A DNA stretch of 64,000 bases, from NCBI GenBank assembly GCA_038997355.1, contig JAWBAC010000001.1, positions 4,820 to 68,819 on the forward strand, given 5' to 3'. Under the pieces are notes generated by a model. It ran no database searches, was not told the DNA's origin, and was given only the letters and a program-made list of their open reading frames with translations. Each line of letters starts with the position of its first letter. Within the stretch, counting starts at the first letter, position 1. The position numbers were made by a program, and so were the translations under genes. Shown here piece after piece: positions 9,770-35,961 of the stretch. Source of the DNA: Candidatus Aenigmatarchaeota archaeon. Its GTDB lineage: Archaea > Aenigmatarchaeota > Aenigmatarchaeia > CG10238-14 > SpSt-28.

Positions 9770-9870
9770 TGCCGGGGGTGGGATTTGAACCCACGACCTC
9801 CGCGTTTCTATCATCAATATCAAAGCTCATTTGATATGAGCGCGGCGTTCTGCCGCTAAACTACCCCGGC
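9770..9870 (-). tRNA. tRNA-Met elongator (anticodon CAT) with ~29-nt intron. Could alternatively be tRNA-Ile2 (CAU)
   Basis: Reverse complement: GCCGGGG acceptor, anticodon stem CCGCG/CGCGG, loop CTCATA|intron|A. Intron ATGAG pairs with exon CTCAT (bulge-helix-bulge). T-loop TTCAAAT. Confidence 0.8.
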
Positions 9871-15150: not shown

Positions 15151-15248
15151 GGGGCCGTAGTCTAGCCAGGCAGGACGACGGGCTCCAGAAATGGAGCTCT
15201 GATAAATGAGGAAACCCGTTAACCCGGGTTCAAATCCCGGCGGCCCCA
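15151..15248 (+). tRNA. tRNA-Trp (anticodon CCA) with ~25-nt intron
   Basis: GGGGCCG/CGGCCCC acceptor. Anticodon stem ACGGG/CCCGT. Loop CTCCAG|intron AATGGAGCTCTGATAAATGAGGAAA|A. Intron AATGGAG pairs with exon CTCCA. T-loop TTCAAAT. Confidence 0.8.
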
Positions 15249-16119: not shown

Positions 16120-17100
16120 ATGATTGAAATAGATGGAAGTTATTTAGAAGGCGGCGGACAAATATTAAGAACTTCAATAGCTTTATCTTGCATCCTTAAA
16201 AAACCTTTCAGAATTTATAACATTAGAAAAAATAGACCTCAACCTGGATTAAAAGCTCAACACTTAGCAGGTGCAAAGTTTGCAGCTGAATTATTAAATG
16301 CAGAAGCTAGAGGCTTAGAAATTGGTTCTACAGAAGTTACTTTTATTCCAAAAGAAGAAAACATTCCAGATTTTAAAGAAATTAATATTGGAACTGCTGG
16401 AAGTATTTCTTTGTTTTTACAAACAGTTTATCCAATAATTGCATTCTTATCCAATAAAAAAGTTAAGCTAAGAATTATTGGAGGTACTAGCGTATTGCAT
16501 GCACCAACAATAGATTATTTAGATTTAGTTAAGTTCGAAATTTTAAAATTCTTAGGTATAGAAAGACCAAAAATTAATATTATAAGGCATGGATTTTATC
16601 CAAAAGGCAATGGAATAGTAGAAATAGAAATTTACCCGATAAAAAATGTTAAAGGTATCGAATTAATCGAAAGAGGAAAATTTATCAAAAGAATTGCAAG
16701 AATCTCTGCAAACGAAAAAGTTGAAAGAATAAATAGAGAAGTTGAAGTTTTAAAAAAATTAGAAAATACTGAAATTTTTGTTAGAAACGAAAAAACTTTA
16801 AGTCCTGGATTTTCAGTTACTATTGCATCCTACTTCGAAAATTGTGTTTTGGGTGCAGATAGTTTAAACTCTTCTCAAGAAGCAATAGAAAGTTTAAAAA
16901 AATCAGAAAATTCTAATGCATGCTTAGACAAATTTATGGCAGATCAAATTTTAATTTATTTGGCTTTATCTCAAGAGAAATCAATAATTAAAGTTGAAGA
17001 ATTAACCTCGCATACATTAACAAACATTTATACTATCGAAAAATTCTTAGGAAAAATTTTCGAAATTGATGAAAATCAAAAAATAATAAAGAGAATTTAA
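16120..17100 (+). CDS. rtcA: RNA 3'-terminal phosphate cyclase RtcA
   Basis: 326 aa. N-terminal IDGSYLEGGGQILRTSIALS is the RtcA signature. Confidence 0.85.
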   Translation: MIEIDGSYLEGGGQILRTSIALSCILKKPFRIYNIRKNRPQPGLKAQHLAGAKFAAELLNAEARGLEIGSTEVTFIPKEENIPDFKEINIGTAGSISLFLQTVYPIIAFLSNKKVKLRIIGGTSVLHAPTIDYLDLVKFEILKFLGIERPKINIIRHGFYPKGNGIVEIEIYPIKNVKGIELIERGKFIKRIARISANEKVERINREVEVLKKLENTEIFVRNEKTLSPGFSVTIASYFENCVLGADSLNSSQEAIESLKKSENSNACLDKFMADQILIYLALSQEKSIIKVEELTSHTLTNIYTIEKFLGKIFEIDENQKIIKRI

Positions 17101-17102
17101 CT

Positions 17103-17241
17103 CGCCGGGGGTGGGATTTGAACCCACGCGGGCTTATCGCCCACCGGCTTTCTCTTTGATATTTTACTCATCATTACTCAGCTACCCCAGAGCTTATCAT
17201 AACTCGAGGCCGGCGCCCTGGTCCAGCTAGGCGACCCCGGC
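17103..17241 (-). tRNA. tRNA-Ser (anticodon CGA) with ~53-nt intron and long variable arm
   Basis: Reverse complement: GCCGGGG acceptor, 3-bp D stem, anticodon stem CCGGC/GCCGG, loop CTCGAG|intron|A. Variable arm TGGGCGATAAGCCCGCG. T-loop TTCAAAT. Confidence 0.75.
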
Positions 17242-17275
17242 ATAATTAATTTATTTTTAACAAAAATCTAACATT

Positions 17276-17330
17276 TTTATGAAGAATGCCGCCGCATCTG
17301 ATAAATGATGAAATGGAGTACCTCTGATTA
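17276..17330 (+). ncRNA. box C/D sRNA candidate (2'-O-methylation guide)
   Basis: Canonical archaeal layout. C box ATGAAGA (17279-85). 12-nt guide ATGCCGCCGCAT. D' box CTGA (17298-301). 3-nt spacer. C' box ATGATGA (17305-11). 12-nt guide AATGGAGTACCT. D box CTGA (17324-27). Confidence 0.6.
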
Positions 17331-18491
17331 AGAATGATAAATTTTTATAACATCTCTATGATTCAATACATAATCTTTTCCAATTTTTCTTTTATTTTTT
17401 ACATCTATAGCATACAAAAAGTTTTTAGCTATTTCAGAATGAATTTTTTCAGCTAAATCTATAACTTTTGCATCTTTTTCTAATAAAAATGCGTTAGGCA
17501 AAACATTTCCTTTTTTATCGCTAAGTTTATTTTCATTTTCAACAGGAAAAACAACTTTATACTTCATAACATTAAAAACTAATCTATTTAATGCATTAAC
17601 AACAAAACTTCCATTATTTTTTTCTAACATTTTTCTAATCTTCTCTAATGCATCTAATTGATTTTTATTCAATTCACTTTCTTTCAAAATTTTGAATGAT
17701 TTAAAATCGTAACTAATTATTCCTTTCTTATCTAACTCTCTAAGTATTAATTCTGATAAAGCGCTGCATTCTACAACTTCTAAATCTAAATTTTCTTTTT
17801 TGATAAATTTTCTTAATTCTTCAATATTTTTGTAAGAATTTTCATCATCTATTTTATTTGCTATTATTATCATCTTTTTACTTTCGAAAAGCAAATTTTT
17901 TGCAAAAGTATCTAAATCTTTTATTTCATTTATGTGTTTTTCTATGTATTCTCTTTTTATTTTTAAACCGCTAAGCTTTTGAGTTAAAACATCTATTAAC
18001 TCTTTTTCGTTAGAATAAAATTTTGGAATGTGTTTTTGAATTATTTGCTTGTACCACTGAATTAATTCATTAATCAAAAAATTTACTTCTTCAACTACAT
18101 TCGAGCTTTCGCTTTCTATTCCTTCTAAGTTTGTTTTTCCACTTGCATCAATTATGTATGCGATTCCATCGACATGATTTATAGAAGATAAGAATTCGTT
18201 ACCCAAACCTTTACCCTTATGAGCTTCTGGAATTAATCCTGGAACATCCCAAAGAATTATTGGAACGTATCTTATTGAATTTATACAAAAACCGTCTTGA
18301 GGATTGCACTTAACATTAAAATCTTTGCATGCACATTCTGTAGATACATATGCAATCCCTTTATTTGGTTTTAGAGTAGTAAATGGAACGTTCGAAATCT
18401 TTACATCGATCATTGTAACGGCTTTAAAAAATGTTGATTTTCCTGCGTTAGGTTTTCCCACTAAAGCGATTTCAATCATATTAAGCAACAA
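17328..18491 (-). CDS. Obg-like GTPase with C-terminal TGS-like domain (DRG/YchF family)
   Basis: 387 aa. G1 GKPNAGKST, G2 TT, G3 DVPG, G4 NKID. Unusual Cys-rich insert CACKDFNVKCNPQDGFC after G2. Confidence 0.6.
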   Translation of the reverse strand: MLLNMIEIALVGKPNAGKSTFFKAVTMIDVKISNVPFTTLKPNKGIAYVSTECACKDFNVKCNPQDGFCINSIRYVPIILWDVPGLIPEAHKGKGLGNEFLSSINHVDGIAYIIDASGKTNLEGIESESSNVVEEVNFLINELIQWYKQIIQKHIPKFYSNEKELIDVLTQKLSGLKIKREYIEKHINEIKDLDTFAKNLLFESKKMIIIANKIDDENSYKNIEELRKFIKKENLDLEVVECSALSELILRELDKKGIISYDFKSFKILKESELNKNQLDALEKIRKMLEKNNGSFVVNALNRLVFNVMKYKVVFPVENENKLSDKKGNVLPNAFLLEKDAKVIDLAEKIHSEIAKNFLYAIDVKNKRKIGKDYVLNHRDVIKIYHS

Positions 18492-18532: not shown

Positions 18533-18651
18533 TGCGGGGGTCGCCTAGCCTGGTCAAGGGCGGCGGGCTTAAGGTAAAACTTAAGCTTTGATATCGATGA
18601 TAAGATACCCGCTGGCTTAGTGCCGTCGTGGGTTCAAATCCCACCCCCCGC
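18533..18651 (+). tRNA. tRNA-Leu (anticodon TAA) with ~34-nt intron and long variable arm
   Basis: GCGGGGG/CCCCCGC acceptor. Anticodon stem GCGGG/CCCGC. Loop CTTAAG|intron|A. Variable arm TGGCTTAGTGCCGTCG. T-loop TTCAAAT. Confidence 0.8.
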
Positions 18652-18748
18652 AAGATTCTTATGAACTTTAAGTTTTGTTTTATTGTGTTTAATATGTTTA
18701 ACTTTTAAGAAAATATAAATATATTTTCTTTCATCTATAATATTCTCT

Positions 18749-18977: not shown

Positions 18978-19103
18978 ATGTACAGATGTATTAATTGCAA
19001 AAGAGTTTATGATAAACTTGAAAGATTAGTTTGCTTAAATTGCGGCGGAAGAATTTTTGAAAAGGTTAGACCACAAAAAATTATAAGAGTTCAAGCAAGA
19101 TGA
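18978..19103 (+). CDS. rpoP: DNA-directed RNA polymerase subunit P (RpoP/Rpb12 homolog)
   Basis: Not in ORF track (41 aa): MYRCINCKRVYDKLERLVCLNCGGRIFEKVRPQKIIRVQAR. CxxC...CxxCG zinc ribbon immediately after L37Ae, the conserved archaeal gene order. Stop overlaps the next ATG. Confidence 0.7.
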   Translation: MYRCINCKRVYDKLERLVCLNCGGRIFEKVRPQKIIRVQAR

Positions 19104-25884: not shown

Positions 25885-25937
25885 TAGATGAAGACACGAC
25901 GGTCAACTGAAAGATGAAGAAGGGTGTCGAATTCTGA
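25885..25937 (+). ncRNA. box C/D sRNA candidate
   Basis: C box ATGAAGA (25888-94). 12-nt guide CACGACGGTCAA. D' box CTGA (25907-10). C' box ATGAAGA (25914-20). 13-nt guide AGGGTGTCGAATT. D box CTGA (25934-37). Lies in an intergenic gap. Confidence 0.5.
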
Positions 25938-35822: not shown

Positions 35823-35961
35823 CGCCGGGGGTGGGATTTGAACCCACGCGGGCTTATCGCCCAGCGGATTTCTTTCTCTTTTACTTTTTGCATCATTAAA
35901 TCAGCTTCACGCCAATCTATCACTCAAGTCCGCCGCCCTGGGCCAGCTAGGCGACCCCGGC
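35823..35961 (-). tRNA. tRNA-Ser (anticodon TGA) with ~53-nt intron and long variable arm
   Basis: Near-identical exons to the 17103..17241 gene. Anticodon stem GCGGA/TCCGC. Loop CTTGAG|intron|A. Variable arm TGGGCGATAAGCCCGCG. Confidence 0.75.

Follow-up and report, generated by a model that had tools for sequence, protein, structure and literature searches.

Among the archaeal box C/D sRNAs identified by RNA-seq, PCAsR136, Sac-sR19 and IHOsR437 carry the heptamer GGAGUAC at guide positions 3-9, the published guides reading GCCGGAGUACCU directly before CUGA, ..GGAGUACGA before CUGA and ..GGAGUACGG before CGGA, respectively (PMC4644070). The sequence GGUACUCC is present in the 16S rRNA of Pyrobaculum, Thermoproteus, Sulfolobus and Ignicoccus, and CGUACUCC in that of Nanoarchaeum, the consensus being gGUACUcC (PMC4644070). 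A second relevant group of guides acts on tRNA: Pyrococcus possesses full C/D sRNAs for nucleotide 34 of the Trp, Met and Leu-UAA tRNAs, plus Leu-CAA (PMC7994747). A literature search for canonical C/D guide RNAs of Aenigmatarchaeota returned none, the sole DPANN example retrieved being that of Nanoarchaeum equitans.

The 64,000-nucleotide stretch of DNA analysed here (the window) is archaeal, with a GC content of 26.6%, and contains an archaeal SRP RNA gene together with a dozen GC-rich tRNA genes, several of which are intron-containing. The computed motif, conservation and D-guide fit make it distinctly probable that this DNA includes the gene of a trans-acting archaeal box C/D sRNA of Aenigmatarchaeota (DPANN), which would be expressed, assemble into an RNP and act on the targets predicted below.

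The sRNA gene, its setting and its conservation

Inspection of positions 17279-17327 of the forward strand gave ATGAAGA / ATGCCGCCGCAT / CTGA / TAA / ATGATGA / AATGGAGTACCT / CTGA, a 49 nt element from box C to box D which matches exactly the C-12 nt-D'-3 nt-C'-12 nt-D layout of the original prediction; the span then proposed, 17276-17330, corresponds to the same element plus a few flanking bases, and the mature sRNA probably extends by a few extra nucleotides beyond box C and box D at either end. The successive components, all on the forward strand, are box C (AUGAAGA, 17279-17285), the 12 nt D' guide (AUGCCGCCGCAU, 17286-17297), box D' (CUGA, 17298-17301), the 3 nt K-loop spacer (UAA, 17302-17304), box C' (AUGAUGA, 17305-17311), the 12 nt D guide (AAUGGAGUACCU, 17312-17323), in which the GGAGUAC core occupies positions 3-9 from box D, and box D itself (CUGA, 17324-17327), which abuts the stop codon of a GTPase gene (17328-17330). 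Box C is one base removed from the RUGAUGA consensus (U5 to A). The same UGAAGA variant is present in a second sRNA of the window, at 25888, and is common in expressed archaeal sRNAs identified by RNA-seq, for example MKAsR54, IHOsR95 and NeqsR10 (PMC4644070).

When the degenerate pattern RTGAWGA-N12-CTGA-N3-RTGATGA-N12-CTGA was searched with at most one mismatch, a single match was recorded in the window and none in 100 dinucleotide-preserving shuffles of it. No open reading frame of at least 20 aa overlapping the element was found. Rfam recorded nothing at the locus at gathering score, and in a permissive scan the only non-tRNA matches with E <0.02 were to sR2 (RF01139; 25.3 bits against a gathering score of 42) and sR5 (RF01304; 23.1 against 40), both of them archaeal C/D families; because these scores lie under gathering, and because the alignments match the boxes only while the guides differ, the sRNA is not assigned to either family. 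A 7-bp pairing of the flanks can be drawn as a terminal stem in the window copy, but was rejected, since the flanks vary among relatives with no convincing stem kept.

An 86-nt gap accommodates the sRNA, with a divergent tRNA-Ser(CGA) gene on one side and the stop codon of the convergent, YchF-related GTPase gene (17328-18479, reverse strand) on the other. The GTPase matches a protein named from a Candidatus Aenigmatarchaeota MAG at 100% identity, its closest homologues (94-75%) belong to the same group, and its gene served as the synteny anchor by which equivalent loci were retrieved from three GTDB genomes (GTPase amino acid identity: L002, 90%; L003, 77%; L004, 75%) and from two more assemblies (L129 and L130, both 75%). 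In all five of these related Aenigmatarchaeota loci the same 49-nt element is present on the opposite strand directly past the GTPase stop codon. Beside the GTPase of two relatives with 56% identity the element was not found, there being no room past the GTPase on either contig.

Alignment of the six loci, the window included, demonstrated that 43 of the 49 nucleotides are invariant, including those of all four boxes, and that identity to the window copy is 92-96% in the sRNA as against 61-72% at GTPase third codon positions (gap-free alignment). Both guide spacers are exactly 12 nt in each of the six loci, so the box spacing by which the prediction could be checked in related genomes proved to be conserved. 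The internal D' and C' boxes are separated by a short loop (CUGA-UAA-AUGAUGA), within the 3-8 nt expected of the class, the boxes being fixed and the loop variable (TAA, TTA, ATA and AAA). The D' guide is the same in five of the six loci, its single change being an A at position 10 from box D' in L004, and the D guide retains an invariant core, with changes limited to positions 2, 10 and 12 from box D. The invariance of the boxes, taken together with the excess of identity over the neighbouring third codon positions, indicates that 17279-17327 is, judged from its sequence, a genuine and selected box C/D sRNA gene, and the proposal of a stand-alone archaeal box C/D sRNA is supported by the layout of the element, by the rarity of such a pattern in shuffled sequence and by its conserved position in the five related loci.

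The spacer upstream of the sRNA is poorly conserved, and the only invariant columns there in the six-locus alignment are those of AATTTA (17248-17253, forward strand), a candidate archaeal TATA element 26-31 nt upstream of box C, from which it would follow that the sRNA is probably transcribed from its own promoter. The intron-containing tRNA-Ser(CGA) gene (17103-17241, reverse strand; Rfam tRNA 41.3 bits, with a 57-nt insertion in the Rfam tRNA alignment) is divergent and not part of the sRNA; it directly adjoins the sRNA in the window, L004 and L129, lies about 1.4 kb off in L003, and was not detected at the L002 locus. As the upstream neighbour differs among loci, the element is not kept as part of a larger unit. 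A gene for an RtcA-like RNA 3'-phosphate cyclase (16120-17100, forward strand) adjoins the tRNA-Ser/sRNA pair, as it does in L129, L130 and L004; that genes for RNA-end processing and for intron-containing RNAs repeatedly lie together may be a coincidence. One further contig with an identical GTPase (L001, Logan contig SRR34265293_245999) ends inside the sRNA, its last ~25 nt past the D' box reading AGTCGGAGGGCCAAGCGGTCTTAGG. This tail resembles what we take to be sequencing adapter, and the divergent end is probably an assembly artefact and not an sRNA variant. A tblastn search for fibrillarin and L7Ae gave no match in the window and L129, which represent a small share of the genome only.

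Predicted targets of the two guides

By analogy with characterised archaeal C/D sRNPs, boxes C and D would form a terminal K-turn and boxes C' and D' an internal K-loop, each of which would bind L7Ae and recruit Nop5 and fibrillarin; each 12-nt spacer would then pair with a target RNA, and 2'-O-methylation would fall on the target nucleotide that faces position 5 of the guide, counted from box D or D'. The sRNA most likely directs ribose methylation of 16S rRNA. Neither the window nor any of the fetched Aenigmatarchaeota loci contains an rRNA gene, and a scan of viral contigs found no rRNA; both the D and the D' duplex were therefore judged on the rRNA of other archaea.

The D guide, with the core GGAGUAC(C/U)U, would pair with the 5' base of 16S helix 23, A/G-G-G-U-A-C-U-C-C (E. 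coli 671-679), and its most likely target is the conserved, unpaired A equivalent to E. coli A675. The conserved part of that core, which is 7 nt long (9 nt with its flexible flanks), is complementary to GUACUCC of the archaeal 16S consensus (E. coli 673-679), and in the Rfam SSU_rRNA_archaea consensus the start of helix 23 appears as gG-UA-cccc with the UA unpaired. Among the seven archaea of the published rRNA alignments, GGUACUCC occurs only at this 16S site, its sole occurrence in the 23S file being in the E. coli line (PMC4644070). Where the D guide varies among relatives (positions 2, 10 and 12), it lies opposite rRNA nucleotides that are themselves variable in archaea (671-672 and 680-682), and opposite its invariant core is the archaea-wide GUACUCC. 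The window and L003 D guides differ in having AUU versus UUU facing 680-682, and C versus U facing 672. The register of GGAGUAC is the same as in the three published guides, and the N+5 rule consequently picks the same A, the E. coli A675 equivalent.

For the D' guide the preferred placement, at about even odds, is on A728-G732 of 16S rRNA and the adjoining 3' strand of helix 22, by which the G732 equivalent would be methylated. In this placement A728-N-G730-C731-G732 fits guide positions 1 and 3-5, amounting to four of the five of the conserved A-N-G-C-G, and the next seven nucleotides constitute the species-specific 3' strand of helix 22, for which a lineage-specific helix sequence is assumed; no match to the complement of the guide, AUGCGGCGGCAU, was found in the aligned rRNAs of the seven archaea (PMC4644070). 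As this proposed site is located about 50 nt downstream of the D site, pairing of AUGCCGCCGCAU with A728-G732 and the variable helix strand would allow a single sRNA to bind the h22/h23 junction on its two sides while the small subunit is assembled.

Other candidate targets were also considered. Within the window (SRP RNA, tRNAs and mRNAs) the sole perfect complement is the antisense strand of the sRNA itself, and an 8-bp guide match at 19040 falls within a small zinc-ribbon-like open reading frame, taken as RpoP. Helix 89 of 23S rRNA was rejected as a D' target, the combined pattern having given no metagenome matches.

A second sRNA, tRNA introns and the alternative readings

A second canonical C/D sRNA was located at 25888-25937 (forward strand), reading ATGAAGA-CACGACGGTCAA-CTGA-AAG-ATGAAGA-AGGGTGTCGAATT-CTGA. 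Its D' guide forms 11 of 12 pairs with archaeal 23S UAGACCGUCGUG (E. coli 2586-2597), with N+5 at nt 2590, and its D guide fits the base of 23S helix 93 with N+5 at the equivalent of E. coli C2606, a position for which Dennis et al. 2015 (PMC4644070) predict methylation in each of their six thermophilic archaea. Both nt 2590 and C2606 are known 23S hotspots, and from the fit of this sRNA to them the lineage appears to use canonical rRNA guides.

The introns of several tRNA genes also contain guide-like elements. The tRNA-Trp gene (15151-15248) has a 25-nt intron at about 15189-15213, AAATGGAGCTCTGATAAATGAGGAA, that comprises a guide and a D'/C'-like K-loop, AAAUGGAGCU-CUGA-UAA-AUGAGGA. Originally described as ~25 nt long with just a D'/C'-like core, the intron also carries a guide, whose position 5 pairs with C34. 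tRNA-Trp is one of three tRNAs with introns of about 25-45 nt in which a guide is followed by D'- and C'-like boxes with a loop of 3-6 nt between them (a K-loop half-mer), the others being tRNA-Met CAU (9770-9870, reverse strand) and tRNA-Leu UAA (18534-18652, forward strand), and tRNAs of this type recur in L002 (11679-11776 and 5824-5943), L003 (9960-10058 and 4385-4511) and L004 (12777-12873 and 4386-4504). In each host, guide position 5 pairs with nt 34, which is C34 in Trp and Met, and U34 in Leu-UAA. The Trp introns of four genomes keep the GA/UGA cores, and their third K-turn pair varies between G-U, A-U, G-C and A-A. An intron of 25 nt that houses a minimal half-guide acting in cis is possibly a new variant, and of more apparent interest than the free-standing sRNA.

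Longer introns (>50 nt) of tRNA-Ser(CGA) (17103-17241, reverse strand) and tRNA-Ser(UGA) (35823-35961, reverse strand) contain a C-like box, an 11-12 nt guide, CUGA and AUGAUG(A/C), with no clear box D seen in either; tRNA-Ser intron genes of the relatives are at 8580-8719 in L003, 7237-7375 in L004 and about 11224-11383 in L129. Unchanged between the window, L003, L004 and L129, the guide of the Ser(CGA) intron, GCUCUGGGGUAG, complements the archaeal 23S consensus CUACCCC(G/A)GGG (E. coli 2437-2447) with N+5 at nt 2441, which suggests that this intron encodes a trans-acting rRNA guide. ARAGORN mis-called tRNA-Trp and overlooked a further four tRNAs with introns that Rfam did find; the intron-containing tRNA-Leu(UAA) gene was missed both by ARAGORN and by the Rfam gathering scan.

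It is against this background that alternative targets for the stand-alone sRNA have to be weighed. Methylation by the D guide of the A2439 equivalent of 23S rRNA, beside the peptidyl transferase centre, would exploit a pairing with E. coli 23S 2435-2444 that is perfect over 9 bp and includes one G-U pair in addition (the target proper being 2435-2443, AGGUACUCC), a site to which the guide in the neighbouring tRNA-Ser(CGA) intron is also fitted in its archaeal consensus form. We regard it as very unlikely and rejected it as the D target, because the site itself differs in archaea: the Rfam archaeal LSU consensus there is AGcUACCCcgGGG and that of Halomicrobium AGCUACCCUAGGG, and GGUACUCC is absent from all seven archaeal 23S sequences aligned in PMC4644070. 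A metagenome scan for 23S rRNA of the lineage yielded 120 loci with GTACTCC at the site, every one of them closer to E. coli than to Halomicrobium 23S. With respect to the D' guide, the original prediction had noted partial complementarity to GCGGCGG stretches in tRNA-Val and tRNA-Ser; the matches are real, but consist of a 7-bp GC run only, at positions which are inconsistent among the tRNAs. A more defined form of this idea, in which the GC-only heptamer (nt 24-30) would direct the guide to G26 of tRNA-Leu(UAA), tRNA-Ser(UGA) and tRNA-Cys, gains from the fact that these three window tRNAs share one register (|x|||||||xx| or :x|||||||xx|) with N+5 at about nt 26. It nevertheless seems unlikely, given a run of only seven unbroken pairs, mismatches at positions 2, 10 and 11 of the guide, a match in tRNA-Val at another tRNA position, the sequence GCGUCGG in tRNA-Leu(UAA) of L003 and L004 where the guides are unchanged, and the ease with which tRNA stems rich in GC, set in a genome whose GC content is 26.6%, would yield such heptamers by chance. 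That the sRNA might be a dual rRNA/tRNA guide, the GC-only D' guide directing 2'-O-methylation of G26 in the Leu-UAA, Ser-UGA and Cys tRNAs, is given a slightly smaller chance still; if true, it would represent an RNA-guided route to Gm26 or m2,2Gm26, modifications to which, to our knowledge, no archaeal enzyme has been assigned. A weaker variant of the dual-guide reading is that the sRNA and the mini-introns may be of common ancestry.

The likeness of the sRNA to the tRNA-Trp intron had prompted the suggestion that the former is a relocated or duplicated derivative of the latter, acting in trans on tRNA-Trp to give Cm34 or Um39. Intron-encoded C/D guides for tRNA-Trp are indeed established in Euryarchaeota (PMC7994747), and the likeness exists, but in the form of two blocks in permuted order, CTGATAAATGA(T/G)GA and AATGGAG, shared by the window sRNA and Trp intron; in L002 both elements have GATGGAG. 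The first block is composed of the D'/C' boxes with their 3-nt spacer, so that the shared 14-mer is the K-loop motif and its sole non-motif part is a spacer that is free to vary in both elements (TAA, TTA, ATA and AAA in the sRNA; TAA, AAA, TAAA and AAA in the Trp intron). The second is lost from the sRNAs of L003, L004, L129 and L130, which have AAAGGAG, while their Trp introns retain AATGGAG; the GGAG in both elements would be accounted for by the Trp intron guide pairing with CUCCA of the Trp anticodon loop and the sRNA with CUCC of 16S rRNA. Paired to tRNA-Trp, moreover, the D guide gives |x|x:|||||xx, with N+5 at nt 31 and not at C34 or U39, and with the flanking, box D-proximal pairs broken, and the intron already has a guide of its own with position 5 opposite C34. 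Derivation from the Trp intron is accordingly not supported by these sequence comparisons, and the whole proposal of origin and action in trans is highly improbable. Least credible of all is the view that the element is a chance motif or a decayed remnant without function: box C is off consensus and every Rfam score lies under gathering, but against this the pattern is absent from all 100 shuffles, and boxes and guide cores have remained invariant beside a gene that is only 61-72% identical at third codon positions. Guidance of 16S rRNA methylation by a selected sRNA remains the preferred reading.

Comparison with described guide RNAs

The window sRNA is itself an ordinary, though real, archaeal box C/D guide RNA gene; it adds an example of a canonical C/D guide RNA in Aenigmatarchaeota and extends known biology without changing it. 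From its occurrence it seems that Crenarchaeota and a DPANN lineage both methylate the conserved A at the base of helix 23 in 16S rRNA. Its main practical value is one of annotation, since standard tools miss or misread this sRNA, the second one (25888-25937) and several of the window's tRNAs with introns.

In box order and spacing the window sRNA is like sR2 and sR5 of Pyrococcus, from which it differs in its guides. With Pyrococcus sR50 and the Haloferax volcanii pre-tRNA-Trp guide it has in common the box C/D machinery and a UGGAG-type guide segment; those guides, however, lie inside the tRNA and target C34 and U39 of their host, whereas the window sRNA is a separate gene with its guide in another register.

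The closest correspondence is with PCAsR136 (Pyrobaculum calidifontis), Sac-sR19 (Sulfolobus acidocaldarius) and IHOsR437 (Ignicoccus hospitalis), all three of which, like the window sRNA, are double-guide RNAs of ~50-60 nt with GGAGUAC at positions 3-9 from box D or D' (PMC4644070) and the same predicted 16S target, the A of GUACUCC; PCAsR136 has the full GGAGUACCU directly preceding CUGA in common with it (PMC4644070). The GGAGUAC guide is the D' guide in PCAsR136 and Sac-sR19 but the D guide in the window sRNA, and the second guides are unrelated to that of the window sRNA, the one in Sac-sR19 pairing with the 3' strand of h23. The window sRNA is further distinguished from the three published examples by its host, a low-GC DPANN archaeon, and by its AUGAAGA box C. 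Its resemblance to the published GGAGUAC guides may reflect either shared ancestry or convergence; in either case, by virtue of its D guide, it is the predicted functional counterpart of PCAsR136, Sac-sR19 and IHOsR437.
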